Part shown: positions 10,501-62,615 of the stretch, piece by piece
Layout: every line of letters starts with the position of its first letter
Numbering within the stretch: the first letter of the stretch is position 1
Assembly (NCBI GenBank): GCA_964016885.1
Contig: OZ024740.1
Coordinates: 182,590,001-182,654,000, forward strand
Reading direction: 5' to 3'
DNA length: 64,000 bases
Origin: Eledone cirrhosa
Taxonomy: Eukaryota
Position numbers and translations under genes: made by a program
Notes under the pieces: generated by a model
The model's database searches: none
Seen by the model: only the letters and a program-made list of their open reading frames with translations
What the model was told of the DNA's origin: nothing

Positions 10501-10980
10501 TCATCATTAGCATGTAACAGTTCCACATAAAAAATACTAAATGTAAAGAAATGCAACGCGTGTTAGATGTTTGGAACAACGGGAAAACAACACAAATTTC
10601 CCTCAACATCCATGAAGAAAGAAAAAATGCAAAATCCAGAATTGACAAGTCACAATAATTCAAGGCAGAAAAATTAAATGTTTCTTTTTTGTATTGGAGA
10701 AGGAATGGCATCACATGATGCGTCTCAGCCAATCAGATAGCTGCATTTCGGAGAAGAAAGACAATTGGCGGGAAAATTGGCGGACCAGTCAGGCATTGTG
10801 AATTCTTTTTGTGTTAAACGAACAATTTTCAATTTCGTTATTTTCGCATAGTTGCAAGAAATAAAATATTAGTTCCGTCAATTTTCTTTTCTATGTTTCT
10901 CTAGAAGTTTTTAGAAGTCTTTTAGAAGTTTTTCGAAGTTTTTTTAGAAGGCTGTGTAATGCATAATCGGGGTCAACCAC

Positions 10981-11181
10981 TTTAGACGAAGTGTATTTGT
11001 GTATTTATGAGTTGCAAAAATATTCAGAAGAATACGAATGGCTTGTGCGTGTTTGAACAATCATCTCCAAGAAAAATGCGTCTTGTCACTCTGCATCATC
11101 TTTTGCCGGAGTGTCTGTGTTATTTTTATGACGTCCGTTTGTGACGTCAGAATTTCACACCACAGGTGTCGCTTCGCTACA
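10981..11181 (-). repeat. Shared internal LTR (201 bp)
   Basis: Preceded by polypurine tract tctggaggagggctaca (11182-11198) and followed by a second PBS-like TGGTTGACCCCGA (10967-10979, resembling a tRNA-Trp primer site). Confidence 0.88.
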
Positions 11182-11504
11182 TGTAGCCCTCCTCCAGATG
11201 ACCAATCGATGTACAAGTAAACATATGTAGTGAGAAGCAAGGCAAAGATAGGTAATAAACAAAAGAAATGTTTGCACAAGCAGCAAAAAAAAGACAAGGC
11301 ATGCCAATATGTAACAACAGAAACATGCAAAACAATTCCAAAATGCAACAAATCGTAAGAAAGACAAAAGCAAAGGGCTGCAACAAGGGCAGCTTAAATG
11401 TACAGTTTGATACAGTTTGTTTCCAAAAAAGCTCCAGTTGCCAGTTCATATAATAAAAGTTTGGAAGAGTTCCTTGGGCCTGTGGACTCTTCGACCGGAA
11501 CGGG

Positions 11505-13870: not shown

Positions 13871-14000
13871 CCGCCTCCAGTGACTCTGGTCTGCGTTTCC
13901 TGAAGTTGAATATTTACACGGTGGTCGGCAGTCATTTGCTTTATCAGCGAAGGTGGCATGATATCAGCAAAAAGACGAATTGCTGGCGGACAAGCTGGCG

Positions 14001-14672
14001 TTACGGCGTGATGTCGCGAAGGAACGCGAACGACTTCTTGGCCGCCTGGGAGATGGCCTTACTCTCCCTACATAATTTCGCGACTTGACGCGTCAATGTG
14101 TCAATCGCCTTCAACATGGCATCCTCGTGTGTCGAGACGCGTTGGTTCGGAAAAGTCGAAGAGGCAACAAGCGAGTCCGACGAGGTAGCTTTCCTAGAGA
14201 ATGCCACAATTCGATCGGCAGACGCAGCGATCTGCTCCACCGAGCTCGAGTCCACTATGGTAGCCAATATAATCTGTACATTGTTTGGGAAGCGAGACAA
14301 AAATAGCTTTTTGATAAATGAACTATCCTCATCGGGCGATTCACTGAGGTCCCTAATATGGCGTAAAAATTCGGACGGCGACCTGTCGCCTAAACACTCG
14401 TCCTCCAATAATGCACGAAACCTGCTTTCAACAGAACGGCAGTTTCTCCTTAATATTTCCGTCCTCAATGAATCATACGAAGTACCGGTTGGCTTGTCCG
14501 TTATTAAATCTTTCACCGTGATGGCGAGTGACGAAGGTATACCACTAATCAAAACATTGAGTTTCTGCTCTATTTTAATTCCATTTGCAGCAAAATATGC
14601 ATCCAGTTGCGCAAACCAGAGCTGGGGCTCACCGGAGAACGCAGGTAAATTAGGACTACTCATCATTAGCAT
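14001..14672 (-). CDS. gag: Gypsy Gag-like protein (truncated by frameshift)
   Basis: 223-aa ORF with LPAFSGEPQLWFAQLDAYF and LGDRSPSEFLRHIRDL motifs typical of invertebrate Gypsy Gag. Confidence 0.8.
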   Translation of the reverse strand: MLMMSSPNLPAFSGEPQLWFAQLDAYFAANGIKIEQKLNVLISGIPSSLAITVKDLITDKPTGTSYDSLRTEILRRNCRSVESRFRALLEDECLGDRSPSEFLRHIRDLSESPDEDSSFIKKLFLSRFPNNVQIILATIVDSSSVEQIAASADRIVAFSRKATSSDSLVASSTFPNQRVSTHEDAMLKAIDTLTRQVAKLCRESKAISQAAKKSFAFLRDITP

Positions 14673-15139
14673 GTATCAGTTCCACATAAAAAATACTAAA
14701 TGATATCCAAGTAAAGAAATGCAACGCGTGTTAGATGTTTGGAACAACGGGAAAACAACACAAATTTCCCTCAACATCCATGAAGAAAGAAAAAATGCAA
14801 AATCAGGAATTGACAAGTCACAATAATTCAAGGTAGAAAAATTAAATGTTTTTTTTTTTTTGTATTGGAGAAGGAACGGCATCACATGATGCGTCTCAGC
14901 CAATCAGATAGCTGCATTTCGGAGAAGAAAGACAATTGGCGGACCAGTCAGGCATTGTGAATTCTTTTTGTGTTAAACGAACAATTTTCAATTTCGTTAT
15001 TTTCGCATAGTTGCAAGAAATAAAATATTAGTTCCGTCAACTTTCTTTTCTATGTTTCTCTAGAAGTTTTTAGAAGTCTTTTAGAAGTTTTTCGAAGTTT
15101 TTTTAGAAGGCTGTGTAATGCATAAACAGGGTCAACCAC

Positions 15140-22972: not shown

Positions 22973-25082
22973 ATCATCATCATCATCATCATCATCATTT
23001 TACGTATGCTTTTCCCTGCTTGCAAGGGTGGGACGGGTCTTATTCAGCACAGCATCTCTCCACTTGTCATCTCCACCATGAGTTTCAGCAATATGAGGTC
23101 TGCTTTCACCACCTCCGCCCATGTTTTTCGTGGTCTACCTCTACCATGTCTTCCTTCAACTGGCATTTCCTGGCACTTCTTCACCCATCGGTCATCCTCC
23201 ATGCGCATCACATGTCCATACCACCGCAGTCTCCTCTCTTGCACACTACATTCTATCCCTCTCAGACACATTTTTTCTCTCAACATATCCATGCTGGGTC
23301 GTTCACGCACATTGACATTGCACATCCAACGGAGCATGCTTGCCTCATTTCTCTCCAGCTGTCGCATGTCTTCTGCAGTTGCTGCACATATCTCACTACC
23401 ATGCAGCATTGCGCTCCTCACACAGGCATCATATAACTGGCCTTTCGTACGCAGGGAGAAACCCTTCTTTGTCAGCAGAGCAAGCAGCTCCCTAAACTTC
23501 TTCCAACTCGTCCTTATTCTAGATTCTATGGCCTCGGAACACCCCCCTCCCATGCTAATCTGATCTCCTAGGTACCGGAAGCTATCCACCTCTTCTATAG
23601 CACCCGCCTGCATTTGAAAAATGTGTCTATCAATGCGACTTCTACTGTCTAATTTCCCTGTACATCTACTGCATACGTATTTCTCTCTACCTGTTAGTTT
23701 GCCTGCTATCCCACTAAGTCTCTTGTGTACCCCGGATCTGCATTGTGTGCATTTTATAGAATTTATGCCAGTTCCTTTTCTGCATATCAAACATGGGCAT
23801 TTCCCTGACAGAATCAGAGTTTTGTCCTCTTTTCTACTTTTCTCTCTCAGTCCTTTGCTTCCAACTGCTGTTTCCATAGCCAGAATTTATTCTCTAGCTC
23901 CTCTACTGATTCTGCTATAAGAACCAGATCGTCAGCATAGAGAAGTTGCCATGGACAGCCAGTCTTAAACTCCTCTGTTATGGCTTGGAGGACTATAATG
24001 AACAAGAGCAGGCTGAGGACCAAACCTTGATGTACTCCTACTTGTATCTGGAATTCCTCACTAATCTCCATTCCTACCCTGACTTTACTGATAGCACCTC
24101 TGTACAAAGTTTGCACTGTCCTCACAAGCCATTCCTCAACACATAGTTTCCTTAGGGATCACCAGATGACAGATTGGGGGACCCTATCAAAGGCCTTCTC
24201 TAGGTCAACAAAGGCTAAGTATAGTGGCTTATTTTTCTCTAAGAACCTCTCTTGTAATTGTCTCACCAAGAAGAGGGAATCTGTTGTACTCTTCCCAGGC
24301 ACAAAACCAAACTGCATCTCATCTAGTTTGAACCTTTCTCCAATTAGTAGTGCTAATATCCTTTCTACCACTTTCATAACCTGATCCATCAGTTTTATAC
24401 CCCTATAATTGCTCCTCTCCAGAGCATCCCCTTTACCTTTTGTAGCAATTTATGAGAATACTGCTGCACCAGTCTTTGGGTATGACACCACCATATATAG
24501 CCTGATTGATGATGCATGCAACCAGTTTAGTGCCTACACCCCCTGATGCCTTCTGCATCTCAACAACTATCCCCGACGGTCCAGCAGCCTTACCATTTTT
24601 CATTTCCTTAATCGCCTCTTTGACCCTATATTCGTCAATCTCAATAGCTGGTCCCTCTGTCGAATCTACTTAGGGTAATTTCTATCTCCCCCATTCGTTC
24701 TCCACATTCATCAATCTCCCATAATGATATTTCCAGGCCTCCTCTTTCTGATCATTCGTGACACTAAGTACACCGGCACCATTCCGGACACATTTATCTC
24801 CAACAACATCCTGATTTGCCTTGACACACTGCCTGCAATGTGGAACACCGCACACCTCTGATCTTTCCATCCCAGAACATTGGCAAACCTCCTTCGCTCA
24901 GCCTCCCTGCGTCCTAGGTACACCTGACGTCTAGCTTTTCTCTTAGTGGCTGTATATTCTTCTCTACTCCAACCCTTTTTCCAAGCCCTCCTTGCTCTAT
25001 TTACTGTGCTGTTCCACCAGCAGTTCACTCTCTGTCTGGTTGGAGTAATGCTCCAGCCACAAGTTTCATCAGTAGCCTACCG
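22973..25082 (-). mobile_element. 5'-truncated, frameshifted RTE LINE
   Basis: RT motifs [32 protein letters not shown]; PHD-like CLIC..CTQC..H..CSRC; RGRPRKTW; (GAT)n tail 22973-22998. Confidence 0.92.
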
Positions 25083-25507: not shown

Positions 25508-28500
25508 TCATCATCATCATCATCATCATCAACGTTTAACGTCCGTGTTCCAAGCTTGCATAGGTTTGGACGGGGGTAGTCCCACTTGAGGCAAGAGTGA
25601 TTGTCTTGCTCGCATAGGACTGTCTGGCAGGTTTTCTACAGTTGGATGCCCTTCCTAACACCAACCACATTTACAGTGTGGGTTTGGGACGTTTTTACCG
25701 TGTTGCCTACACGGCCACATTACAGCGTGGACTGTGTGTTTTTTTGTCGTGAGACCTACACGATCTCATTTGTTTCGGCCTGGATGGTGTGGCACCAACA
25801 CAACTTTACATAGAACGGGGTGGCGTGGATGGGGTGGGGTGGTGGGACGGGGAGGGGGGGGTTACTTTGTTAGAGATGCCTACTGGCTGTAGTAGGTTTT
25901 ACTATGTATTTAGGTAAGGCGGGTATTCTCTGTTACTGAGTACCGCCAAAGGTCTCGGTCCAGTGACATTGTCTTGGAGAGGTGTAAGTGTGTGAGGTCG
26001 GAGTTTATCAGCTCGTCCCAGGTTTTTCTAGGTCTGCCTATTCCGTGGCTACCGTCTATCTTTATTGCCCTGCACTTTGTTATACAGCTATCGACTTTCA
26101 TGCGCATCACGTGTCCATACCAACGTAGCCTTCTCTCGAGTAAACAACATCTGATCCCTCTTATTTCTAATTTTTTCCTTAGTTCGTTTATGCTTTGCCG
26201 TTCACGTATATTACTGTTACACATCCAGCGGAGCATGCAAGCTTCGTTCCTCTCTAGTCTGCGTATATCCTCTGCACACAATGCCCAGGTCTCAGTGCCA
26301 TGCAACATTGCTGTTCGTATGCAGGCATCGTACAACCTGCCTTTCATTTTTAGGGAGAACCTTTTAGCAGCTAATAGTGGTATAAGCTCTCTGAACTTTT
26401 TCCAACCAGTTCTGACTCTAGCTACTGTACTTTTAGAGCACCCTCCCCCACTGCTGATTTTATCACCCAGGTAACGGAAACTGTCCACTATTTCTATAGA
26501 ACCCTCTGCACAATTGAAAGAGCTAGTATTTGTGGGCACTTGCTGCTACTTATTGCACCAGAGCACCGGCCACATGTAAAATCTATGTTCTTAGTTAGCT
26601 TACCTGTGATCCCACTACATCTTTTATGCACCCATACTTTGCATTTAGGACATAAAATGGAGTTTCTACCTACGCCTTTCCTACACACCGAGCACGACCA
26701 TTTCCCAGAAGGGACCGCCGCCTTATTTTCTTTCCTACAAACTAGAACTTTAGTCTTAGCCAGGTTAATTTTAAGGCCTTTTGATTCTAGGCCGTGCTTC
26801 CATGTTTGGAATTTCTTCTCTAGCTCGGCCATTGATTCCGCTATGAGTGTCAGGTCGTCTGCGTATAGGAGTTCCCATGGGCAGCCGGTCTTGAACTCCT
26901 CTGTTATAGCCTGAAGGGCAATAATAAATAGTAGGGGGCTGAGAACAGAGCCCTGATGGACGCCAACTTTTATGCTAAACTCTTCACTATATTCGTTGTT
27001 AATTCTAACCTTGCTGACTGTTTCTTTATACATGGCTTGTATAGCTCTCACAAGCCATTCGTCAACGCCTAGTTTTCTAAGAGCCCACCAGATAATGGAG
27101 CGGGGGACTCTGTCGAAGGCTTTCTCCAAGTCGACAAAAGCTAAGTAGAGGGGTTTACCTTTAGCTAGGTACTTCTCCTGTAGTTGTCGTACAATGAAAA
27201 GAGCGTCTGTGGTACTTTTGCCTGACACAAACCCGAACTGCATTTCATCTAGGTCAATTCTCTCTCTGATTAGTTGTGCTATTACTTTTTCCGTGACCTT
27301 CATGACCTGGTCGATTAATTTAATGCCTCTATAGTTACTCCTATCTAGGGCGTCTCCTTTACCCTTATAACAGTTAACGATGATGCTGCTATGCCAGTCC
27401 TTCGGAACAACCCCATTCTGTACGACTTGGTTAACTATGCGGGTGACCATGGTGTGTCCCACCGTGCCAGATGCCTTCAGCATCTCAGCAACTATTTCCG
27501 AAGGCCCAGCCGCCTTACCCGTCTTCATATCCTTGATTGCCTTACTTATTATACTCCCCTCGACTAACACTGCTGGTCCCTCTATTGGGTCGATATGGGG
27601 GAGACTGTCTTTCTCCCATTTATTCTCCTCATTTAGTAGCCTTTCATAGTGACACTTCCAAGCTACCTTCTTATCAGCGTCGGTGATGGCAAGTGTGCCA
27701 TCGTCGTTTAGTACACACTTCTCCCCGACAATATCACGGTTTTCCTTGACGCATTGCCTAGCAATCCTGAACACCTCACGTTTTTGGTCATCGCGTTGTA
27801 GAACATGCTTGAACTTTCTTTCCTCAGCTTCCCTTCTTGCTAAGTACACTTGTCTCCTAGCTTCCCTCCTGGCCACTTGATAGTCTTCTCTACTTCCCCC
27901 ATCCCGCCATACTTTCCAAGCCTGCTTTTTGGCCTTAATTGACCCCTCCACCTTACTGTTCCACCACCATGTTACTCTCCTCCTTCCTACAGGCCTGCTC
28001 CAGCCACAGACTTCGTCTGTCGCCAACAGCAGGTTTGCTTTCAGAAATTCCCACTCTCCCTCTATATTGTCCGACTCTAAATGTTCTTCCTTACTTTCGA
28101 AAGCATCAAGTAATATGCTTTGAAATTTATTCCTGGCTGTGGGGTCCTTTAGCTTCCATATTTTTCTCCTGAGGATAGTCCTCTTCTGCTGTCGAGTACG
28201 TCTCGTCCTGACTATGAGGTCGCTAATTATCAGTCTATGTTGGGAGGTGCATTCTTCATGGGGGAGGGATTTAGTGTTTACAACAGACACTCTGTCACGT
28301 CTTCTGGTAAGGATATAATCTACCTGGCTTGTGTGTTCCCCGGATCTATAGGTGATCAGGTGATTGTCACGTTTTTTGAAGTTAGTGTTACAGATAGTCA
28401 GGTTATTTGCATCACAGAATTCCAGGATTCTGGAGCCTTCCTCATTTCTAGTACCAAACCCATAGCCTCCATGGATTTCGTCGTAGCCGTCACAATGTTG

Positions 28501-28790
28501 TCCAACGTGACCATTTAGGTCGCCTGCAATAATTATATAGTCACTGTCGGATATTTGGGAGGTAGTTAGCATCAGTGTCTCATAGAATCTGTCTTTTATA
28601 GTGCCGGGCAGTCCGGATTGGGGTGCGTACGCAGATATTACTGTCACCGTAGTTCTATTGAGGACAAGTCGTATTTTAATTATTCTGTCGTTCACTCTAT
28701 TTACGTCTATTATCTTATCTGCCCACTTTTCTGCTACCATGATTCCTACTCCACCCAGCCCATCGTCGTTTCCCACCCAGAAAAGCTTAT
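25508..28790 (-). mobile_element. RTE LINE, near-complete ORF2, 5'-truncated
   Basis: APE + RT + PHD-like finger with a single frameshift near 26530; 3' UTR ending in (GAT)n at 25508-25529. Confidence 0.95.
26494..28776 (-). CDS. RTE ORF2: AP endonuclease + reverse transcriptase + PHD-like finger
   Basis: 760 aa: [34 protein letters not shown]; [35 protein letters not shown]; CSVC..CPKC..VHKRC..CGRC; continues in ORF 25910-26539. Confidence 0.93.
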
Positions 28791-28875
28791 AACATCGTAT
28801 GTATGTACGTATTTGTATGAGTGTATGAGTGGCTGTATGTATGTGTATGTTTGTGTGTATGTGCGTATATATGTA

Positions 28876-28964
<89 letters not shown>

Positions 28965-28975
28965 GTGCATATATG

Positions 28976-29015
<40 letters not shown>

Positions 29016-29583
29016 AATATTTGTGTGTGTATGTTTATATTTGTGTATATGTCTATGTGTACGTATGTATATATGTATGTATGTACGTCTATATGTATAT
29101 ATATGTGTATGTGTGTGTGTATATATATATGTGTATATATATATGTAGCGCTCTCTAAACAAATGGAAGTAGCTAGAGTTATTTCCCGTAGAATTTCTAG
29201 AATATTCCTTTAACTTCCGTTCCAGAGATTATAAAAGAAAGAGCAAAGGGCTATCTCCCTCTCTTTTACCATCAGGCTCTAGAACTGACCGCACCAAGCA
29301 CAGATATGTTAAGCTTTTTTCTAATCCTATCTTGTATATCAAGATCACACCATATCATGGCACAAGGTACGTTTTATTACCAAAATTGTAACAAGCACAC
29401 TTCAATAAATACAAGTCATTATTTATACTCGTTTACGAAATATTCTTCATGCTTCAATTATTATATCCTCATTTCTTTTACATCTTCTAAACAAATTAAA
29501 TTAGTGGTTGGCATGTAGTGGTATTTACTGGAGTAGATGATCCTATGGCCAATTCACTAAATATATATATATATACATATATA

Positions 29584-31764: not shown

Positions 31765-34720
31765 ATACATGTATAAAAATGAAGTACGCTCTACATGGGG
31801 AAAAAGCAGATAGGTAAGAAGTACTTACATAACCATAGTGCCGTGTTTCGGGTCGAGATGGGTTAGGGGTAGGGGGTATTTTGACGAGTGGGTTTAAAAA
31901 AAAAATGAAAATCTCTTTTAGCCATCTGGTATCAACACTGGCTTAAAGTATTTGAAAGTAGCCATGTTTTTGTGCATGCAATTCGGGTAGTGTTCAGAGA
32001 GTTTGTTAAATAGCGGGCCCTTGGCAAATACTATTTCGTAGCTCTCTGATATACAAAGGTCGCAGTACTTGTGTCCTCCTTTATATGAGCACGCTCCTGG
32101 AGTATTTTCCATTTAAACGTGAAGGGGGTAGAGTTCCTTTTGACATAGGAGCCGTGTCTTGTCTGATTTGATTTGTCCGGTCTTCTGAAAGATTGGGTAT
32201 GGGCATACCACCGGGTCTTAAAATTATTGGGAGTCATGCCGATGTAAGTATTTTTGTTGATGCCGTCATCGGTGCCTGAGATTACATCACATTTGTATAC
32301 GATGTCATTTGTCAGGCATTTGTTTTCAATTGGGTCGGATTCCTTATTTAGGCAGTTGCACAAGGCTCCCGGGGATTGGGTTCGGAGGAAGTAGGCTTAT
32401 TTAATTTTTTAGAGTTGAGAATGGCTATATTCCTAGCTAGGTTAGGTGTAGTGGAGTAGGAAAGTCTTATTGTGTTCTTATTGAAGATGGTGTAGTACCT
32501 ATGTTGTATGGGAAGTGTGTGTTCAGCAAAATGAAGAAAGTCCTAACTATAGGTGTAGACACCTCTCTATAGAAGGGGGGATTGTACCAACTAAGCTGCC
32601 TATGCCTATTCCTCCTAGGTGGTCTTGGGGTGCTTTCTAGGTAAGTGATCTTTTCTTTAAATCCGCTGCAGGCGAGGGCGTCTTTGTAGTAGGAGGCAGA
32701 GGCATAAATATATCTTCATTGGCCGAGAGGCCGGAGATTCTAATTGAGACGCTTTTTACTAAGGTATCTGTGATGTTTGGGAGGTGGTTAGAATTAACAT
32801 TAATATATCTAAGGGACTCGTTAGGTTTGTGGTACGGGTGATAGAGGGAAGTATCTAGGTCAAGAGTCAAATCTAAATGTTACCCCTAGTCATATTAGAT
32901 TCTATGGTTATTCTAAATCCTAGATTACGGAAGAACGAGCTTAAGTTTCTCCGAAACCCCTCAGTGGTTCTGGGGTTAGCCTTGTGCAAGGCGAAGAGGC
33001 CGTCGTTTCGGTATAATCCTTCGGTGAGGCCAGTGAAGGGGTTCTTCAGATGATGTAAGACGTACAGTCCTACGGGGTCGCTTATTTCAACCGAGTCACT
33101 CGCTCCCATGCTGACGTCGAAAGGGGTCTGAGACTTCTTGTTGATCCAGTAAGATCCCTCGTGGTGTACAAAGGTCTTACAGGCGTGGAGGGTTACATCT
33201 TGTTCAGCGTCGGTTATGGTGGTAAATTCCTGGCAAAAGCAAGTGCGTCCTTCAGTAGGGGCTCTGAGATAGAAGCATTGTAGTCGTCTATGTCGAGTTG
33301 CAGGAAGGGAGTGTGGCGTTTGTAAAGAAAATATTGGAACCAAGAGATTGCCTTGGATGTTCTGCTCCAAAGTGGGAATGGTGAAGCAGCCCGCAGTAAT
33401 GGTAGAACTCTATCGAGGATCTTTTTGCTGATAGAGCCGATGTCCGAACGTGTGAGGTTGATACGTCTGACTGATGGTTTGTTGAGGAAGTTTCCTATGT
33501 GGTCCTTCAGGATAAAGTGCGGGGTCTTTATCCTTAAATGTTCCATTCGGTCGTATAGTTTAAGGGACTTGACAATTTCTTTTCCGGCCGCATTGGTCTC
33601 AGTCAATGACATCTCGTTCACCTTTTTGTAGGTAGTCGTGATGGCATTTTTTGCCAGCTTATTCTAGGTCGGTGTGTCTACCTGATAAACGTTTTTCGTT
33701 TTATCGGACTAGACATGGAGATTGGGGGAAATTTCAGTTGTTAAGTAGGCCTGGAATGGTGTGTTGGCTTTACGAAATTTGATATCTTTGATCATCTTGA
33801 AGAGGTCTTCCTCAAAAGGTTCAAGTAGATTGTTGGTGGGTGGTGCCTTATTCGTTTTGAAACCGAACTTCTCGTCATTGGTAGATGATACACCAGGGTT
33901 GTCGAGGAAGAAGGCTTTCTATCTAATTCGCTTGATGAACTCGTCTGTACGTATGATGAGTGTTTTTTAGGTAAAGTTTCCTTGAAGGGATCGGGATATT
34001 CTTCATGGAGACATCAATGTCGAGTTTGGTCAGCATAGTTTCTTGGTGATGATTAAGAAAAGCACTATGAGTGCTAAAAGATAAGTTATTCCGGGTTCAA
34101 TCGGGAGCAACCACAGTAAGTAAGGTACTCAATGCATAGTAGAGTATAGATGTTTTAATATAGAAAAGCTTCTACAGGACTAGAACTGCTTCATTCGTGA
34201 GAAATCATCAGAAAGCTGACTGTTCAAGTAAATGTGGTGGTATTTATATCTGTTCTGGTGGTAGGAGAGTGTGGAGATTGGGATGGGGGGGGGGTTCATT
34301 GGTTGATGGATTTACAGAAAGGGGAGTTCAATAAAAGCTAATTCTTTAAAGCTATAATTTATATTAACAAAGGCAGAAAGAATACTGTAAACAGGTTCAA
34401 ATTGGAATACCAATCCTTGTTTATCTCTTAAACTAACAATGCCTGTAAGTCAGGGGTCTACAGGATGGGTGGGGTTCATTGGTTTAAAGAAAAGGGAAAT
34501 TCTTTAGAAGCTAATACTTTAAGGCTTAAATAAGGGTGACAAAGGCAGAAAGGGTTCTATAAACAGATTCAAGTGTTGGGGTGCTTCCCCTTATTGTGCC
34601 GTTTCTCTTAATTTATATTCCAGTAGTCAACACGCACTTTAACACACACGCCCACTAACACACGTACACATACACGGACACAAGCACACACAGACAGGCA
34701 CACAAACAAAACAAACATAC
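31765..34720 (-). mobile_element. Near full-length Naiad-like Penelope element (pseudogenised RT + C-terminal GIY-YIG)
   Basis: ORF start ~34036: SMKNIPIPS..IKRIR*KAFF..FGFKT; SDIGSISKKILDR; FLQLDIDDYNASI; FDVSMGASD; GLYRNDGL; YHPYHKPN; CNC..C....VYKC..YIGMT..FKTRW..H; CDLC..E; stop at 31918; hammerhead at 34167-34217 upstream of the ORF. Confidence 0.88.
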
Positions 34721-34833: not shown

Positions 34834-34963
<130 letters not shown>

Positions 34964-34964
34964 C

Positions 34965-35796
34965 AGGCTATATAAATAAGATTAAATACATCGATAACAG
35001 TGATAAGGCAAATAACCTTACTATTAATTATAATTACAATAAAAGATCTAACATAAACTCTAAAACTAACAGAAGAACTAGAACTAGAAATATTATTTGG
35101 TACTCACCCCCATTCTCATTAAGCGTTAAAACACCATTAGCAAAGATATTCTTTAAAGCACGAGATAAATGTTTTCCTAAAGCCCACAGATACCACTCAA
35201 TCTTTAACAGACATACTATAAAACTATCTTACTCTACTACTATGAACATAGCACAGAATGTAAATAGAATCAATAATAGAAATTTAAACCATAACTAAAA
35301 TAGCAGTAGTATCTCTAGCAATATCCAACATAATAGTACCGGTCTGAATAACAACAATTCCGCAAAATGTAACTGTAGAATTAAATTAAACTGTCCTTTA
35401 CAAAATAAGTGTTTAGATAAGGACGTGGTCAATAAATGTACAGTCAAAACCAGTGATAATATATTTAACTATGTAGGTAGAACTTCTACGGAATTTAAAA
35501 GTCGCTGGAATAATCACAAATGCTCTTTCCAAAGATTTGATAAAAAATCTTCAACTTCTCTTTCAAACCTGATATGGAACTTAAAATGCAAGAATATGGA
35601 CTATTCTTTAACTTGGGAAATAGTTTCGAAAGCACCCGCGTACCGAAACATAGCTTTATCTAGATTTTTCAAATTGTGTGTTGAGGAAATTTGTTTCATA
35701 CTTAAATGTAAGAACTCTATTAATATAAGGACGAATTTGTTTAGTTCTTGTAGACATCGCCTGATTTCAACATTTAGAACAATATATAAATTATAA
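34965..35796 (+). pseudogene. Second Naiad-like PLE family, C-terminal linker + GIY-YIG fragment
   Basis: RNIIWYSPPFSLSVKT..FP..HRYHSIFNRHTIKLSYS; CNCRIKLNCPLQNKCL..YVGRTSTEFKSRWNNHK..STSLSNLIWNLK..LCVEE..CRH. Confidence 0.85.
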
Positions 35797-36977
35797 TTAC
35801 ACTTATAATATTTCTACTTATTTCCATAACAATCTTATCCACTTGGTTTTAATATATTGATATCTCTAAATCATATCTATAACATTTGCTATAATTTCAC
35901 TTCTTAAAGTTTCTTAAAATATATACATATATAATTGGAATTTTTTAAATTTTAATTGTAATTTTAATCTTTATAATTTTTAATTATTTCTTTAATTTTT
36001 TATCTATTTTTAAAAATTACTTTTTTTTTTAAATTACTTATCTCTTATAAATTATTTTTGAAAAAAACTTTCCGAAATTTTAAATATTTTTTCAATATCT
36101 TCTATTAGATTCATAACCACTAACTAATTCTGGCTAAATATATCTTTCAACATTTATACTTATTTTGACAAAATAGTCTCATACTAACGAATAAATAAAC
36201 AAAACTGGAATATTTTCCGTATCTTCCCCTTTTAAAATATATATATATAAATATTCTTATTAACTCAGTTAACTTAATTTAATTTAACTTAATATTTACT
36301 TACATTAAATACAAAACCAATATCCCTCATAACTCATTAAAACAATTATCTATAACACGATATACCCATCTATTCATTTATTTATCTATTTATCCATTTA
36401 TTTATTTTTCTTTCTATTCTTCTATCTATTTATTTTTCTATCTACTTATAACAGTAAATATTATATTAGAAAATAATTTTAACAACTAATTAATTGTAAA
36501 TACACGTACCATTAGATATATACTTAGAATATATTCCCCCAAATTACCGTTATATGAGTTTTATTCATCCTCTTGTTAATTTCTTCTCTCAATCTCTCTC
36601 GTAATATTTTTTTTCTCTCTTTCTCCAGTGTCATTTAAATAAACGGTTGTTTTTCAATTATTTACATATTCATTTGCATATTCACACATAAATTTGAATA
36701 ATCCCTAATATATTTCCACTATCCAGTGAATGTCCAACCGATAAGGTATGATTTTCATGGGTATGTCTCTATTTATAAAACAAACTTTGTATTTTATCTG
36801 ATGAAAACGTATCAATGTTGTCTTGGTGGCCCTTGAAATATATATAATAAAATAAATATGGTTTTATAAATATAGTTTCCATTTATTGAATATCATTGCT
36901 CTAAATCAGTTATAAACATTTATATTTGTCGGACTTCCAACAAATTAAATACCACTTCTACTTATATATCTATATAT

Positions 36978-52632: not shown

Positions 52633-55600
52633 TTACAGATATATACTCAGAGTAGGCCCATTCATTCGGGCCATTCTTGCTTCTCTCACCCATCTTTCAA
52701 CAAAATGCTGGGAGTAGAGCACTTCCCTCTCTACTCTGATTTTCCTTTTCAAATGAAATTTGAAAAAGTCAATCAGAGCGTCACCGAAGAGGTAAGTGCT
52801 CGTCTTCAGCCCTTTCAAACGTGTCCACCATACTATCTCTTTCGCCATGGCCACCAGACAGATAAAAACTGCCTGCCCTTCCCGGCTAAAGGAGGAGGGC
52901 GGGGCAATCCTCACGATGGACTCAGATGATAGCCGGATCCGTCCTATACGCGACAGTAGGTGTTCGACATAAACCCACAAGTCAGAAATTTTCGGACACT
53001 GGACGAGTGCGTGCAGGACGGTTTCGTCGCCCTGCGCGCATCTCGGACATGCCCGGCTGACGGCACCTCCATGCCTGTAGAGTTTATCCCGAACTGGTAA
53101 GGCTCCTCGGTAGCACTGCAAGGCCAGAGATTTCTGTAAGTTGTCCATAGGCACTGGCCCGAAAGTTCTTCCGAAGAGATTGGCTAGTTGATTTTCGTCG
53201 ACGCCTAGAGTTTCCCCAAGTACGTCGTCGCTCTTCCCCTCCACTAAACCTCTATAGAACGCCGAGGTGGAGTTTCCACCGATCACATGGCCCGATTGGT
53301 CGAGGGCTGTGAGCGCCTGAAGACATTCCAGTCTTCAGGCGCTCCCTCTCGGTCTTCGCTTGACCCAGGACTGCAGCTCCGTCAAGGAAACAAGCTGGGG
53401 AAATACGTGTCTAGCAAACGGCGACCACACCTGATCACCGTCGAGGAAGAGGTGGAGATGTCGTAGCCTGAGCGCGTGACTGTGGATCATCAGCCACGGC
53501 ATGCCCAGCCCTCCACGTAGCGGGTGTTGACAACAGATGGACCGCCTGACCATCGGAGCGCGTCCTTTCCACAAAAAGCGAAAGAGCAAACGCTCCAGCA
53601 CAGTCAGGCGAGGCTGTTGGACGGCATGGACCGGCCTTCCAGGTGCCGACCTGCAGGCCCACTGACTTTTCCTGGTTGATCATTGCTCCTGTCACCGCTT
53701 CGTATTCTCTTAGTGTAGTGCCGATCGCCTCGATGTGTTTGGCGTTCGACACCACTACGGTGATATCGTCCGCATATGCTGACACGGATCTTCCGCATCC
53801 TAGTTCGCGCGGGAACCCCTTCAACGTCACCAGTTTGTGCAGTAATGGCTCGAGAGTCAATACGTACAAGAGGGACGAGAGGGGACATCCTTGGCGGACC
53901 GAGCGCATGATATTGAACGGTTCCGAAAGGTGACCGTTCACTCTCACCACAGAGCAGATCTCGCTGTGCATGCCAGCGATCCAGCCTCTGAAGACGGGCC
54001 CAAAGCCAGCCGCCCTCAGGACTGCCGCTAGGTAACGATGGTCGACCCTATCGAAAGCTTTCGACTGATCTAAATTGATCAAGGACCCACCCTTGCCAGG
54101 TTCCCTAGCTACCGTCTCTACGATGTATCGCATGAGGTGGAGGTTGTCGTGGATGGATCTATCGGGAATGGCGCATATCTGCGCCTCTCCCACCAGACCA
54201 CCAACGAGAAGCGCCAACCTCTTTGCTAGCACCTTGGCCAAAATCTTGAACTCTGTGTTTAGCAGAGTTATGGGCCTGAAATTATCTGTTATCCCCCTTG
54301 TTCGGATCCTTTCTCAGCAGCGCCACAGCTCCTCGGCTCACAGAGCTGGTAATTCTCCCGTTCTGTTGCCAGTTGTAGTAGACGTCCGCCAAGAGGCTTC
54401 CGAACAAGTCTGGTATCTGTACATAAAGTTCATAGGGCAGACCATCCAAACCAGGCGATTTACCCCTTGTGCAGCCAGTCATTGCCTCCCGTACTTCAGC
54501 GGCTGTTATCGGCTTTTCGCAACACTTCGCCTCAGTGGCCGAGAGCCGCGGCAGTCCGTCGAGGTAGACACTAAAGTCCATCCCTCGATTCGGCCCACCG
54601 CTGCCCCCGAACAGCTGTGCGAAGTGTCGCTGGAAAGCTTCACACATTTGCCCGGGATCGAGTAGCATGCGCCCGTCGTGGTCCACCAAAGACCGGATCG
54701 TGGCTTTGTTGCCACGACGCACCTCCGCCACTCGGGCCCATTGAATGGCTTTCGTCCCCTCTGACAAGGTAGCCTTCGTGCTTTGCATTGAAGAATTGAT
54801 CAAGGGCCAATTTCGCCGCAAGTACGTCGGTCGCTATGCCTTTGCTAAGCGCCGCAAGTACGTCGGCCGCTATGCCTTTGCTAAGCGCCTCGTGTAATTT
54901 TCTAACTGCTCTATTTTTCTCTATTACTAAAGCCTTACTAAATCTAATTGACTCTATTCTAATCGCTCTTTTCAGAGCAAACCACCACTTGTTGTTGACG
55001 ATATCCCCCGTTAATGCCCGCTTAACTAGTTCGCTAATCCGGTCTCTGTAGACCTTGCGCGCTGGTAAGGACGCATTTAGCTTCAAGTAGCCGGGTCCTC
55101 GTCTATGAAGCCTATCTAAGTCAAGCACACAGATCACGAATTTTTGGTCCGTGTAGCTGACTATCTTCAATTGTGGACAGCCTATGCTAGACCTATCTAT
55201 TTCTCTACAAAATACTCTATCTAGATATGATCTGGATGTCCCTATGCGATTTGTCCAAGTCCACATTGGCACATTCGGGAAATCCAATCGGTACCTGTCA
55301 GACAGTTCAAAACGCCTGAGCAAGTTCGTGAGGCTCTTGCACCCTCCTCCCCTATCCGCTAATTCCACACAGTCCCAGCGTGCATCTGAGATCCCGTTCC
55401 AGTCGCCCACTAACACTAAAAAGCGGGACGTTCCAAGAAAGGTCTCCAGCCGCCGGAAGAAATCAGGCCGCCCTGCTCCTGCCGGGGCATAGACGGCCAC
55501 TAGCCTGAAATCTTGCCCGTCTCCGCTGGTCACGTCCAGCAACACCAACTTACCTTCTGGGTACAGGAAGATGGCCCGTATGGTGAGATCCAAACCTCTC

Positions 55601-55834
55601 CGAAAAAGCACAGCAACTCCACCCCCCCCCCCCCCCCGATCCAGGATGGCTGGGAGAAGCATACACATCGTAGCCGCCGAAGATCGGTGCGAGGAACCGT
55701 TTTTCAAAGATTCTGGTCTCGCTGATGGCCACTACATCTATGTTTAGTGACCTGAGGTCGTTGAGTAGGTGGCCCTGCTTCCATGACGACGCCAAGCCAC
55801 GCGCTTTTATGCTGTCAATTCTGAGTGAGGTCAT
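52633..55834 (-). pseudogene. Tx1 ORF2 (APE, RT, C-terminal zinc finger), multiple frameshifts
   Basis: IDVVAISETR, VAVYAP, LVGDWN, SYLDRVF, KSPGLDGLPYE, LDQSKAFDRVDH, SVRQGCPLS, AYADDIT, GGLGMP, CPRCAQGDETVLHALVQCP. Confidence 0.92.
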
Positions 55835-55949
55835 GTTGAAATGGAGTGGAAAAGATGGGAAGACCACTTACCTTACTTCTCGTAGAGGAAGGATGGTTTC
55901 TCCATCCTTTTCACTGCTTGTGGCCTCCTCCGGAAGGATGTCCTTATAA

Positions 55950-57744
55950 ATCCACCCGGAGAGTGCTTGTCGGAAGTCTCCGATGTCTTTGGAGAATTTT
56001 TGTTTTAGTGTCGTGTACGTTTCCTATGTGATGCAAGTGATTTGTATGTGTGGAGGTGGTGTGAACTTTTGGGTTGTTGTGTAGTCTTTTTCATTGATGC
56101 TGGTGTTGTGTTGGATGTAGTGTAATAATTGGTTGTTGTTCAAATTTAATGCTGTGTAGTGTGTATCGTTCTGGTTGTTTTGTTTTGTTTGCGTTTGTTG
56201 TGGGTTTGTTTCTGTTTCGCTTTTTGGTGACTTTTGTGGTGTTGGTGATGGTGGTGTTGGGGTTAATGATGGTGTTGGTGTTTGTGGTGATGGGGTTGGT
56301 GATGCTGGTGTGGATGGTGGCATATCTGTCCTAAGTTTTTTGTTTGACAGTTTATTTTTTTCCCTCTGTATTTTGTTTTTGGAGGGGGAGGGAAGAGATT
56401 TTTTTTCTTTTTTGGTTTCTTTTTTCCTGATACCGTTTACCTCTCCATGCCGTCACAATCTGTCTCCAGTTGTGATAGGCCGGGGAGTGGAAAATTCTCC
56501 ACAGGCGTTGGTTTAGGTTGTGGCGTGGTGGATGGTGTAGGCGCTGGTGCTAGTTCTGGCGCGTTCGGTGGTGGTGGTGTTGGTTTTGCTTGTTGTTGAG
56601 GTTGTTGCTGTTACAGTTGCTTCTGTTGTTGCTGCCATCTCTGCTGCTGGTGGTGTTGATGGTTGAGTCACTGGGGTAGGTAAGAGAGGTGGCCTCAACC
56701 TTTTAGCCTGAGGGCAGAAAGCCCTTAGGTGGGTTCCTTCACCACAAACTCACACCTAGGCCTTCAGCCCTCGACGATTACGGTGAGGTGGCTGCCGTCA
56801 GTGAGGTCTATTACCTCTGGGATCTCCTCAATGCTTTTTGGGTCCGCTTGGATCAAGAGCTCCATCCCAGATCCGGACCAGTTCTCCTGCTTTTCTTTCG
56901 CTATTTCGATTATCTTGGTGTTGGCTTCGATGCCGGCGAGGACGGCAGCTATTAGCAAGGGAATTTCGATGGCCGGTGGAACGTGGGTCACCCTGATCTT
57001 CACGAGTCTCTGGCCACAATAGCTTGGGACGAGTGTGAAGTCGTCACTTCTTAATGGGGCCATGGAGTGTTCTCTGGCCTTCTGTAGTGTTTCAAAGAAC
57101 ACGTCCACGGTTCCATATTTCTGCCCACATCTGATATAGGTTTTTTTTGCCCACACATGTCCCAAAGCTTTTTGGATTTGGGACTCGGATGCCGATTCCA
57201 CTCGGCGCGATTTTATGCTAATCATCCGATAAGACACGGTGCATAGGCGCCAATACTCCATTTTAATAGGGAGGGCTGACCCTGTACCCATCTTTCTTTA
57301 CCATTTTTTTGGCTTCTTCTAATTCCCCCTGAGATACCTGGAATGCTTCGCACTGTTTTGCTATTCTGGCAAAACTCAGGGTGGTTTTCTTAATTTCATT
57401 GTTGCTGTTATCGTTATTTTTGTTGTTGTTAATTTTTGTTTCAGTTGTGGTGGTGGCGACATCAGTGGTGTTCGGTGTGGAAGAGTTCATTTTGGTTGAA
57501 TTCATTTCGATATCACGAGTTAATTTTTTTGTTTTGTTTCTGTTGTCGCTGTGGTGGTGATGGGGGTGGCGGCTTTAACACCTGCAGTCATTGGTAATGG
57601 CGGGAAATGAATGTCTGCCTGAGACAAATTTAAAATATTGCTACTGCTTATATTTTTAGTGTTGGCAAATATAGTAATATTTATAATGGTGGTGTCGGTG
57701 TGAGGTGTTAGTTTGTGAGGAAGTTGTGACTTTGAGTCGTCCAT
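55950..57744 (-). pseudogene. Tx1 ORF1 (frameshifted)
   Basis: Low-complexity N-terminus, TLSFARIAK, RRM-like middle region, VIVEG followed by a Cys/His knuckle, Pro/Thr-rich tail. Confidence 0.7.
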
Positions 57745-58013: not shown

Positions 58014-58626
58014 GATACGCACATGATGGATAGAGTGTTATTGAATCGCTCCCGTAAGTTTTTGATTTTTTACGTATTTAAAACCATTGTGATAGAATAA
58101 TTCTTATTACAAATGGAACATAAGATACAAGTTTTAACTCTCAGGAAGTGACAAAGCATCACATTATGACATAGGGCCCCAATATTTAATATTTAATTTT
58201 GGATCAGAAATGTTATCGTCAAAAAAGAAAATGGCTACAAACAACAGCCAAATAATTTCACCACCAACACCAACACCGCCACCACCACCATCACCACTAC
58301 CACAAAAAATCTAGCCAAACAAACCAACGGCTACATCAACACCATCACTATAGTACTACTAACCCAACACCACCACCACTGCATCATCGCTACCACCACT
58401 ATTCTCTCACTACCTCCAGTTAAGAGAGAGGCATGGTAGTAGTCCCACTAAACATGAATAGAAGCGAGGAAAGTATCAAAAGAAATAGACTGATTTAGTG
58501 ACCCGGTCAAACAGCTAACAGCAACAACAACAACACCAACATCATTATTGCTGTTGTACCTCTAAACTCTCTCAAAATGTTTAGTTTATACGATGTCAAA
58601 TCTAAACTATAATATAATAATAGTTG

Positions 58627-61600
58627 ATATAGACATAGAATATTCGAAAATATTCTGTATGTTTATAATAAACATTTTGAAGACCTAATCGCTATAGAAT
58701 AGAATACGTCACGTATTACAATTAGATTCTCGATAAAAGCAAGGGAAGTAATCTACGCGTTTCATTCTTGTTAGAAATCATCAGGACTACATATCCAGTG
58801 CTTTTATCGAGAATGACACAGCTAGAGACTTATAGAATACTTAGCTGTGTACAGGAACTGGTTTGAAAGAGCGGTTTCCGGTCCGGCAGAAATTAGAAAT
58901 TGGAATAAATGCTCTGAAATAGCGATATATATGTGAATATAGACATAGAATATTCGAAAATATTCTGTATGTTTATAATAAACATTTTGAAGACCTAATC
59001 GCTATAGAATAGAATACGCCACGTATTACAATTAGATTCTCGATAAAAGCAAGGGAAGTAATCTACGCGTTTCATTCTTGTTAGAAATCATCAGGACTAC
59101 ATATCCAGTGCTTTTATCGAGAATGACACAGCTAGAGACTTATAGAATACTTAGCTGTGTACAGGAACTGGTTTGAAAGAGCGGTTGCCGGTCCGGCAGA
59201 AATTAGAAATTGGAATAAATGCTCTGAAATAGCGATATATATGTGAATATAGACATAGAATATTCGAAAATATTCTGTATGTTTATAATAAACATTTTGA
59301 AGACCTAATCGCTATAGAATAGAATACGTCACGTATTACAATTAGATTCTCGATAAAAGCAAGGGAAGTAATCTACGCGTTTCATTCTTGTTAGAAATCA
59401 TCAGGACTACATATCCAGTGCTTTTATCGAGAATGACACAGCTAGAGACTTATAGAATACTTAGCTGTGTACAGGAACTGGTTTGAAAGAGCGGTTGCCG
59501 GTCCGGCAGAAATTAGAAATTGGAATAAATGCTCTGAAATAGCGATATATATGTGAATATAGACATAGAATATTCGAAAATATTCTGTATGTTTATAATA
59601 AACATTTTGAAGACCTAATCGCTATAGAATAGAATACGTCACGTATTACAATTAGATTCTCGATAAAAGCAAGGGAAGTAATCTACGCGTTTCATTCTTG
59701 TTAGAAATCATCAGGACTACATATCCAGTGCTTTTATCGAGAATGACACAGCTAGAGACTTATAGAATACTTAGCTGTGTACAGGAACTGGTTTGAAAGA
59801 GCGGTTGCCGGTCCGGCAGAAATTAGAAATTGGAATAAATGCTCTGAAATAGCGATATATATGTGAATATAGATATAGAATATTCGAAAATATTCTGTAT
59901 GTTTATAATAAACATTTTGAAGACCTAATCGCTATAGAATAGAATACGTCACGTATTACAATTAGATTCTCGATAAAAGCAAGGGAAGTAATCTACGCGT
60001 TTCATTCTTGTTAGAAATCATCAGGACTACATATCCAGTGCTTTTATCGAGAATGACACAGCTAGAGACTTATAGAATACTTAGCTGTGTACAGGAACTG
60101 GTTTGAAAGAGCGGTTGCCGGTCCGGCAGAAATTAGAAATTGGAATAAATGCTCTGAAATAGCGATATATATGTGAATATAGACATAGAATATTCGAAAA
60201 TATTCTGTATGTTTATAATAAACATTTTGAAGACCTAATCGCTATAGAATTGAATACGTCACGTATTACAATTAGATTCTCGATAAAAGCAAGGGAAGTA
60301 ATCTACGCGTTTCATTCTTGTTAGAAATCATCAGGACTACATATCCAGTGCTTTTATCGAGAATGACACAGCTAGAGACTTATAGAATACTTAGCTGTGT
60401 ACAGGAACTGGTTTGAAAGAGCGGTTGCAGGTCCGGCAGAAATTAGAAATTGGAATAAATGCTCTGAAATAGCGATTTCTGTCGGACCGGCAACCGCTCT
60501 TTCAAACCAGTTCCTGTACACAGCTAAGTATTCTATAAGTCTCTAGCTGTGTCATTCTCGATAAAAGCACTGGATATGTAGTCCTGATGATTTCTAACAA
60601 GAATGAAACGCGTAGATTACTTCCCTTGCTTTTATCGAGAATCTAATTGTAATACGTGACGTATTCTATTCTATAGCGATTAGGTCTTCAAAATGTTTAT
60701 TATAAACATACAGAATATTTTCGAATATTCTATGTCTATATTCACATATATATCGCTATTTCAGAGCATTTATTCCAATTTCTAATTTCTGCCGGACCGG
60801 CAACCGCTCTTTCAAACCAGTTCCTGTACACAGCTAAGTATTCTATAAGTCTCTAGCTGTGTCATTCTCGATAAAAGCACTGGATATGTAGTCCTGATGA
60901 TTTCTAACAAGAATGAAACGCGTAGATTACTTCCCTTGCTTTTATCGAGAATCTAATTGTAATACGTGACGTATTCTATTCTATAGCGATTAGGTCTTCA
61001 AAATGTTTATTATAAACATACAGAATATTTTCGAATATTCTATGTCTATATTCACATATATATCGCTATTTCAGAGCATTTATTCCAATTTCTAATTTCT
61101 GCCGGACCGGCAACCGCTCTTTCAAACCAGTTCCTGTACACAGCTAAGTATTCTATAAGTCTCTAGCTGTGTCATTCTCGATAAAAGCACTGGATATGTA
61201 GTCCTGATGATTTCTAACAAGAATGAAACGCGTAGATTACTTCCCTTGCTTTTATCGAGAATCTAATTGTAATACGTGACGTATTCTATTCTATAGCGAT
61301 TAGGTCTTCAAAATGTTTATTATAAACATACAGAATATTTTCGAATATTCTATGTCTATATTCACATATATATCGCTATTTCAGAGCATTTATTCCAATT
61401 TCTAATTTCTGCCGGACCGGCAACCGCTCTTTCAAACCAGTTCCTGTACACAGCTAAGTATTCTATAAGTCTCTAGCTGTGTCATTCTCGATAAAAGCAC
61501 TGGATATGTAGTCCTGATGATTTCTAACAAGAACGAAACGCGTAGATTACTTCCCTTGCTTTTATCGAGAATCTAATTGTAATACGTGACGTATTCTATT

Positions 61601-62336
61601 CTATAGCGATTAGGTCTTCAAAATGTTTATTATAAACATACAGAATATTTTCGAATATTCTATGTCTATATTCACATATATATCGCTATTTCAGAGCATT
61701 TATTCCAATTTCTAATTTCTGCCGGACCGGCAACCGCTCTTTCAAACCAGTTCCTGTACACAGCTAAGTATTCTATAAGTCTCTAGCTGTGTCATTCTCG
61801 ATAAAAGCACTGGATATGTAGTCCTGATGATTTCTAACAAGAATGAAACGCGTAGATTACTTCCCTTGCTTTTATCGAGAATCTAATTGTAATACGTGAC
61901 GTATTCTATTCTATAGCGATTAGGTCTTCAAAATGTTTATTATAAACATACAGAATATTTTCGAATATTCTATGTCTATATTCACATATATATCGCTATT
62001 TCAGAGCATTTATTCCAATTTCTAATTTCTGCCGGACCGGCAACCGCTCTTTCAAACCAGTTCCTGTACACAGCTAAGTATTCTATAAGTCTCTAGCTGT
62101 GTCATTCTCGATAAAAGCACTGGATATGTAGTCCTGATGATTTCTAACAAGAATGAAACGCGTAGATTACTTCCCTTGCTTTTATCGAGAATCTAATTGT
62201 AATACGTGACGTATTCTATTCTATAGCGATTAGGTCTTCAAAATGTTTATTATAAACATACAGAATATTTTCGAATATTCTATGTCTATATTCACATATA
62301 TATCGCTATTTCAGAGCATTTATTCCAATTTCTAAT
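58627..62336. repeat. Palindromic tandem array of 310-bp hammerhead-containing monomers (retrozyme), 6 minus + 6 plus
   Basis: Exact 310-bp period (agacatagaa at 58631, 58941, 59251...; g[ct]cggaccgg at 60481, 60791...62031); inversion at 60475-60476; TSD TAATAATAGTTG at 58615-58626 and 62333-62344. Confidence 0.96.
60578..60620 (+). ncRNA. Minimal type I hammerhead ribozyme (representative of 12 copies)
   Basis: gtagtc-CTGATGA-t ttct aaca agaa t-GAAA-cgcg-TA-gattac; plus copies start at 60578, 60888, 61198, 61508, 61818, 62128; minus copies at 58748-58790 + n*310. Confidence 0.92.
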
Positions 62337-62340
62337 AATA

Positions 62341-62615
62341 GTTGTTTCTACTTTTTTGGCGCAGGGCCAGCGATTGCCCAGTGCATTGCTGGTGCTTTGT
62401 TTTATCGACCCCGTATAATATAATAATAATAATTGTTTCTACTTTAGGAACAAGGCCAGCAAATTACCCCGTGCATTACTGGTACTTCATTTTATCGACC
62501 CCGTAAGGATGAAAGGCAAAGTCAACCTCGGCGGGATTTGAAATCAGATCGTAAACGGACGTAACTATGCTGGAAAGCATGGCGTCCGACCTTCTACCGA
62601 TACTGTCAATCCACC
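62341..62615 (-). mobile_element. SINE (same family as 19282-19489) plus an adjacent partial second tail
   Basis: ttatcgaccccgtaaggatgaaaggcaaagtcaacctcggcgggatttgaa; partial duplicate at 62341-62415. Confidence 0.8.

Follow-up and report, generated by a model that had tools for sequence, protein, structure and literature searches.

Metazoan non-long-terminal-repeat (non-LTR) retrozymes consist of tandem units of 150-450 bp, each with a type I hammerhead ribozyme, and the available parts of the reports on them (PMC7229834; bioRxiv 10.64898/2026.07.22.740005) describe plain tandems, with no mention of head-to-head arms, a tail or fixed ends. They raise the open question of whether animal retrozymes are inserted from circular RNA by the enzymes of Penelope-like elements (PLEs). 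The hallmark of PLEs themselves is an inverted, 5'-truncated copy together with a target site duplication (TSD) and a tail of 30-40 bp at one end (PMC8557442, PMC3846280), and how they make head-to-head repeats with a one-sided tail is a second open question (PMC3846280, PMC8557442, PMC11167929). Here, we describe an array of hammerhead monomers at positions 58615-62344 of a 64,000-nucleotide stretch of Eledone cirrhosa DNA (contig OZ024740.1, positions 182,590,001 to 182,654,000; the whole stretch is called the window), in which two tandem arms of 310-bp units are joined head-to-head, and the family of dispersed insertions to which it belongs.

The element resembles metazoan retrozymes in its unit size, the single hammerhead in each unit, low G+C content, the absence of coding sequence, a TSD longer than 4 bp and the presence of PLEs in the genome. 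With endonuclease-containing PLEs (PMC3846280, PMC8557442) and with the Hydra clade it shares the head-to-head, 5'-truncated inverted copy, the TSD, the one-sided tail of 30-40 nt, (TA)n targets and the hammerhead; unlike them, it has no open reading frame (ORF), its arms are multimers, and no pseudo-LTR (pLTR) matching the tail region was found. Because the arms are multimers, the origin of each arm and its template can be read unit by unit. The link between retrozymes and PLEs, which the published accounts draw from co-occurrence and pLTR similarity, is read here from the insertion ends. Near-identical insertions by the thousand, multimer arms and unit-level markers make both questions testable by counting, and the sample yields a strict rule of one A and one B end (two sites on the monomer), a single template per insertion and a bound on fold-back. 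It should be noted that the PLE signature and the hypothesis connecting retrozymes, PLEs and circles are already in print; titles and abstracts, a search that leaves subscription journals uncovered, held no head-to-head retrozyme arrays with tail ends, no strict A/B pairing and no member of this family.

Insertion ends across the family

The genome (3.0 Gb) contains 4,507 exact matches to a 32-nt core pattern (reversed control, 0), which is a lower bound on core copies. Matches to junction patterns numbered 1,107 for B ends and 1,274 for the A type, some of the latter being internal variants, and capture-recapture puts the number of insertions, roughly, at 2,000. Ten loci of the sample were taken from the first matches of the core, and 100 were the first of the 121 regions that insertion ends defined on contig C1 (sampled loci carry L numbers). 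It holds 112 insertions including that of the window: 92 complete and two-armed, 9 complete and one-armed, and 11 incomplete, where the fetched stretch ends or runs into N. Duplicates of neighbouring loci, two sister-family matches in L115, a 23-nt match in L085 and, in L041, which has four parts, the inner pieces were left out of the count, and the left end of L053 was placed manually. The 92 complete arrays have a median size of 7.9 and a maximum of 22 units, longer arrays having exceeded the fetched stretch.

All 92 complete two-armed insertions run minus-then-plus, that is, head-to-head in the sense of the ribozyme, and no tail-to-tail insertion was seen in the sample. Each has exactly one A and one B outer end (49 A/B, 43 B/A; binomial p 4e-28). 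In the numbering of reference unit 60787-61096, A ends lie at monomer positions 264-277, with 63 at 268 and 22 at 277 (85 of 92 at these two), and B ends at 303-310, 69 of the 92 at 303. The modal offset from 268 to 303 is 35 nt and matches the PLE 'tail'. Loci of type A/A or B/B would have been equally findable by selection for one end, and the rule holds in all eight loci retrieved by the core alone. Three odd ends (L053, L057, L116) were rejected as mis-extension into adjoining sequence.

The inner ends are scattered over the monomer and fall near the ribozyme cut in 3 of 184 cases, versus 6.5 expected. Among 91 junctions, 45 have an overlap of 1-16 nt, 15 are blunt and 31 contain extra or unassigned bases. 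(TA)n flanks the insertion on both sides in 83 of 91 cases; the homology between site A and the target consists of (UA)n, and target homology at site B is no more than 1-2 nt. TSDs of 12 bp (window), 15 bp (L034) and 34 bp (L032) could be read, most others being unreadable inside (TA)n, and the window locus is among the few of the family with a readable TSD. One junction, L041:1868-2045, has four parts (minus, plus, minus, plus) and uses the same two monomer breakpoints twice.

Both arms are longer than one unit in 75 of the 92 insertions, and arm lengths taper off smoothly from 19 bp to about 6 kb. The lengths of the two arms are weakly correlated (Spearman 0.25, p 0.018), and each reverse transcriptase (RT) stops at random after an independent number of units. 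Arms agree within 1% at the window locus only (1 of 92); the approximately six RT rounds per arm of the preliminary description are thus a coincidence, and equal arm length was discarded as a clue to the mechanism.

The signature of PLEs is present in full: of 101 complete insertions, 92 are head-to-head, A and B are paired in 92 of 92, and the target is (TA)n in 83 of 91. The tail and the head-to-head form, found together in all 92, support the earlier proposal of a Penelope-like mobiliser. The arrays are dispersed and have TSDs and fixed ends, and would as a satellite be expected in a few large blocks without these; other copies elsewhere in the genome, for which a search had been suggested, do exist and are not confined to such blocks. 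Judged by its sequence, this is a new and young family of type I hammerhead retrozymes.

In the twin priming of LINE-1 (5' inversion), two target ends likewise prime on the same RNA, and the product is head-to-head with a TSD and microhomology at the junction. There the arms copy different parts of the RNA, and inversions are a minority class. The present arms, unlike those of LINE-1, copy the same sequence repeatedly from fixed start sites, and two arms are the rule (92/101). A LINE-1-type product was rejected since the arms overlap on the template, over 77,656 bp in total, and do not represent separate parts of an RNA.

Template, priming and alternative routes

In 77 of the 81 loci in which both arms span at least one unit, the two arms share their fixed haplotype; when arm pairing was shuffled 1000 times, the mean was 11.5 and the maximum 21 of 81. 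The sample contains 33 haplotypes, 23 of them seen once. Two of the four exceptions (L063, L067) carry a partial 104G and two (L099, L115) are probably alignment edges. One template for both arms, as the preliminary description had implied, is therefore what the haplotypes indicate, and PLE-type two-ended priming on one template is very probably the route of insertion.

The likeliest form of that template, though by a modest preference, is a monomer circle. Thirty-seven variants are fixed across whole loci. Three of the variants turn up on several backgrounds (104G on 4, 158G on 4, 87G on 3), almost always in all units of an array or in none, arrays of as many as 14 units included. Non-fixed substitutions are mirrored between the arms in 4 cases (3 loci) and unmirrored in 67; about 33 mirrored ones would be expected if the templates were multimers from donors of average age. 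Whole-locus fixation and the lack of run-off at the ribozyme cut thus favour the 310-nt circular RNA template proposed earlier, against which stand the mirrored variants of the three loci. A single-unit copy with 226T was considered as a donor and rejected, as such a copy is expected by chance at the mutation load of the family; 226T has 46 matches in five loci, fixed in L111/L175, L172 and L174 on a 123G background, fixed in L173 on another, and present in L171 in one of eight left-arm units.

We regard it as probable that the array is one insertion of a non-autonomous hammerhead retroelement and that a Penelope-like RT-endonuclease acting in trans, probably one from the Hydra clade, inserted it. 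By analogy with other retrozymes, the array would be transcribed, and its hammerheads, probably as dimers formed through the palindromic stem III, would release monomers to be ligated to circles. A PLE protein would cut both strands of the AT-rich target with a stagger that yields the observed TSD. Both target 3' ends would then prime complementary DNA (cDNA) on one ribozyme-sense RNA, at site B and at site A 35 nt upstream, each site being used once and never the same site twice, as the end pairing and the shared haplotype show. After independent numbers of units, the two cDNA ends would be joined, possibly by a repair route using the 0-16 nt of microhomology seen at the junctions, to give the head-to-head array. 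Purified protein of the Poseidon element PAc, a predicted dimer, behaves similarly in vitro: AT-rich DNA is its preferred target, both strands are cut and then extended, and reverse transcription begins at two internal sites between which the tail lies (Frangieh et al. 2024, PMC11167929). In the available account of PAc the start site did not differ between strands, whereas each insertion of the present family uses each site exactly once.

Several observations weigh against this interpretation or parts of it. Nine of the 101 complete insertions are one-armed, 100 of the 110 loci were chosen by one end type and all stem from contig C1. L063 and L067 are mixed within a single locus, and L076, L086 and L105 carry non-fixed variants at equal depth in both arms, which is impossible on a monomer circle and thus requires ordered multimers or a joint template switch in these three. 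The expectation of about 33 mirrored variants breaks down if donors were much younger than the present loci. In four loci, against 0.9 expected (p=0.011), both arms end within 12 nt of equal depth, as would be seen if a minority of insertions arose by fold-back or at a linear 5' end. Five long arms (L036, L037, L050, L080, L098) carry private variants more than once, which suggests later duplication at the DNA level. Purified PLE favoured unprocessed RNA as substrate in vitro (PMC11167929). Lastly, a PLE carrying the A-B region of the retrozyme itself was not found, and the likeness to the Hydra-like PLE family described below is limited to the hammerhead. In L105, the same two outer units of different haplotype are present in both arms.

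It is possible, albeit rather unlikely, that the two-ended priming usually took place on uncleaved linear multimer transcripts of donor arrays, with circles or expansion at the DNA level stepping in only now and then to regain length and fix new variants. The mirrored variants, the four loci of equal depth and the preference of the enzyme for unprocessed RNA are what this would predict, and the U.U pair of stem II and the 2-bp stem III suggest a weak ribozyme, low monomer cleavage having been reported for such a form (PMC7229834). Linear multimers would require a separate monomer-to-multimer step for each of the 37 fixed variants, and they account poorly for the all-or-none recurrent A>G changes and for the ratio of 67 unmirrored to 4 mirrored substitutions.

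Growth in place, in which short palindromic PLE-type insertions were expanded by unequal exchange or slippage, has been suggested for retrozymes (bioRxiv 10.64898/2026.07.22.740005) and would produce the repeated private variants of the five long arms. It is improbable as the origin of the arrays, since private variants mostly occur once (all seven of the window are singletons), arm lengths fall off without a step, and both arms would have had to expand independently at nearly every locus.

Marginally less probable still is fold-back, as proposed in PMC3846280 to explain PLE palindromes, in which a single primed cDNA primes itself and the endonuclease sets the second end. The same polarity and the shared haplotype would follow automatically, 7 of 80 loci join by an 11-16 nt overlap at an internal 15-bp stem, and 4 loci have a near-zero loop. 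However, in 14 of the 92 insertions, including that of the window, the second arm exceeds the first in both directions, in L046, L048 and L054 the copy would have to exceed its template in length, and most other loci would need loops measuring hundreds to thousands of nt and closed by 0-5 nt of homology. Simple fold-back is thus disfavoured as a general route, unless nascent strands often slip register. An assembly artefact (fold-back reads or misjoined arrays) has a negligible probability: some arrays adjoin N gaps (L033, L103, L174), but the flanks differ and carry TSDs, 92 different junctions obey one end rule, haplotypes are locus-specific, and contigs of sequencing run X2 contain A and B ends adjoining (TA)n, joins of the stem type and an empty-site junction.

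A>G changes in the ribozyme sense account for 12 of the 34 fixed substitutions but for 12 of the 137 private ones (p 3e-4), and the ratio of A>G to T>C is 12:5 among fixed and 12:25 among private ones (p 0.017). The variants that recur most (158G, 104G and 87G) all represent A>G changes that lie in helices and follow a U. Adenosine-to-inosine (A-to-I) editing of the template RNA would most simply explain the excess, the alternatives being tolerance of G.U pairs or the arbitrary choice of the reference. Base pairs are kept by 6 of 6 fixed and 3 of 18 private variants (p=6e-4); selection for base pairs was rejected as a reading of this value because five of the six kept pairs involve A>G, with G.U retained automatically. 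The hammerhead core is struck by 0 of 37 fixed and 6 of 165 private variants, numbers too small to decide. In L063, the B arm turns from 104A to G after four units, and the A arm has G throughout. Tentatively, an RT pair might load asymmetrically on one small ribozyme circle, prime at A and B and roll, so that A-to-I edits enter the germline as whole-locus A>G changes; L063 would then record an edit made in mid-copy, with B primed first.

The window locus and its hammerhead

The features of the locus are listed in Table 1. Recomputation against the reference unit reproduced exactly the twelve 310-bp units, the arm coordinates and the unmirrored substitutions, seven in number (58877, 59019, 59874, 60251, 60429, 60482, 61534), of the preliminary description; each substitution is confined to a single unit and none is mirrored between the arms. 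All twelve hammerhead cores are intact, as had been stated, the change at 61534 lying outside the core, where it turns U.U into U.C at the base of stem II. The palindrome is permuted, with arm starts about 35 nt and arm ends about 45 nt apart on the monomer.

Table 1. Coordinates of the array, its ribozyme and its target in the window
Feature	Position	Strand	Description
Left TSD copy	58615..58626	+	12 bp, TAATAATAGTTG
Left arm	58627..60476	ribozyme sense on minus	1850 bp, 5.97 monomers, from monomer 276 (inner) to 265 (outer); outer end (RNA 3') of site A class
Head-to-head junction	60475..60476	none	2-nt overlap of the arms, AT
Right arm	60477..62336	ribozyme sense on plus	exactly 6 x 310 bp, 6.0 monomers; outer end monomer 306-310, site B class
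Outer helix around the ribozyme	60555..60641	+	15 bp, monomer 79-93 paired with 151-165; first plus unit, recurs in every unit
Putative type I hammerhead	60572..60625	+	motif and stems; predicted cut after 60614
Site A (monomer 268) to site B (monomer 303)	62294..62329	+	35-nt PLE-type tail, last unit
Right TSD copy	62333..62344	+	TAATAATAGTTG; first 4 nt shared with the end of the right arm
Target	62333..62512	none	TAA-rich end of a presumably SINE-like (short interspersed element) repeat with a 90-bp tandem duplication

In the 64 kb, TAATAATAGTTG occurs at these two positions only, and the direct repeat cannot be extended. Excision of the array in silico restores the 90-bp duplication, bracketed by the 15-mer TATAATATAATAATA, which at 58608 and 62414 flanks the first 90-bp copy once the array is removed. 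In sequencing run X2, two contigs exit the left flank exactly at 58626 into TTTCTACTTTT, which in the window follows the right TSD; the left flank occurs as a repeat within that run, so that orthology of this empty site is not proven, and the run may be related to the source of the assembly. The empty-site junction supports the earlier reading of the perfect 12-bp repeat as a genuine TSD, and ends, TSD and shared haplotype agree with the view of a non-LTR retrozyme array made by one target-primed insertion.

The window array is thus a single real insertion and an ordinary locus of its family, the finding being the rules that hold at the family level. The 'giant palindrome' that had been singled out is real, and its head-to-head form is the family norm. 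The insertion had been called recent, which is apt for the family; with seven private changes versus 1.6 expected (p=0.001), the locus lies above the family average and is therefore not among the youngest.

The monomer has a G+C content of 106/310 (34%), and its predicted fold of -77 kcal/mol (z -5.0) was equalled by 0 of 100 shuffles. Stem I (UAGUC/GAUUA) pairs monomer 103-107 with 139-143, CUGAUGA lies at 60584-60590 (monomer 108-114) and GAAA at 60605-60608 (129-132), stem II pairs 116-119 with 124-127 and has a U.U at its base, as in HHR_Amex2 of the axolotl (PMC7229834), and stem III is palindromic (ACGCGU), the predicted cut following monomer 138. Rfam had no match for the monomer at the gathering score and below it a weak match to Hammerhead_HH9 (19.2 bits, E 0.04). 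The assignment of a putatively self-cleaving type I hammerhead is therefore based on the motif together with its stems, and on the covariation seen in a sister family. The latter has a unit of 321 bp that aligns along the whole retrozyme unit (L115:2525-3327, L176-L205), copies diverged by about 5%, a longer palindromic stem III, the core UUGAUAA (U3-A8) in 37 of 37 matched copies, and the outer helix kept with a different sequence; U3-A8 covariation has been described in PLE hammerheads (PMC4209133). The part that the two families have in common comprises monomer 197-310 and 1-24. Thirty loci of the sister family were inspected by eye; of the 18 with two arms, 13 have the A/B pairing, and in the other 5 one end lies at a different place.

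The longest coding frame on the circularised monomer has 30 codons, and was rejected as a gene because the reading frame is not kept in the sister family. No LTR was found, the insertion ends being the A and B sites and not terminal repeats; primer-binding site and polypurine tract were not searched separately. With a ribozyme in each unit of 150-450 bp, a G+C content below 50%, neither coding sequence nor LTR and a TSD longer than 4 bp, the element classes as a putative non-LTR retrozyme.

Candidate mobiliser and significance

A young PLE family is present in the same genome (22,726 first-look candidates, of which 150 were scored; many of these have the same score, with frames of around 758 codons). 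Its ORF contains the motifs RWR, DKT and CxCX5C and has no Pfam or PDB match; the family is assigned to the Hydra clade because its motifs match the description of Hydra-clade PLEs, which are short, hammerhead-bearing and (TA)n-targeting (PMC8557442, section 11). It has 26 of 28 nt in the hammerhead core and stem II in common with the retrozyme and shows small head-to-head insertions (L069, L087, L106, L125). Its pLTR ends at (TA)n form two clusters of 14 and 5 ends, about 70 nt apart versus 35 nt in the retrozyme. Other PLE families in the flanks of the fetched loci had no match to the retrozyme, one family having been studied in depth. The Hydra-like PLE is therefore a candidate mobiliser and a parallel case, and not a proven partner.

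A decayed copy of this family (relatives L141-L170) lies in the window at 31830-34300 on the minus strand, with a hammerhead at 34211, and the 3' fragment of a second Hydra-like PLE at 34960-35900 on the plus strand, with a CxCX5C linker and a weak GIY-YIG match (E 0.009). Another Hydra-like PLE at L042:2000-6300 is head-to-head and has a long 3' region and a hammerhead with a palindromic stem III. Hammerhead-like motifs of at least three families occur in the window at 25227 (-), 29943 (-), 40597 (+), 41380 (+), 41858 (+), 43844 (+) and 44048 (+), and further ones, including a tandem array in L103, in the flanks of fetched loci. The window also holds a decayed LTR retrotransposon at 10900-15110 on the minus strand (RT and RNase H matches, repeats at 10902 and 15061) and, on the same strand, fragments of long interspersed elements (LINEs) at 25910-29034, 23044-23886 and 52633-57297, which comprise an 846-codon endonuclease-RT-PHD frame and pieces of a second, GC-rich LINE. 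Twenty sequencing runs (17 organisms, 16 studies) contain 76-100% of the monomer words; in runs X1 and X3 the unit forms one 340-nt contig with a depth of 10-12 and no matching unique flank, and that of X1 loops back by 310. The reason may be a circular RNA, horizontal spread, the presence of close relatives or carry-over of a repeat with a high copy number.

The family is a natural record of PLE-type insertion and offers a 310-nt substrate and a young PLE in one genome. Each locus is a long inverted repeat, and read-through transcription would be predicted to give double-stranded RNA of kilobase length. If an RT pair indeed rolls on one small circle, each insertion would be a two-track tape of one RNA molecule, and if the A>G excess reflects editing, the family would exemplify a route from RNA editing to inherited change in DNA.

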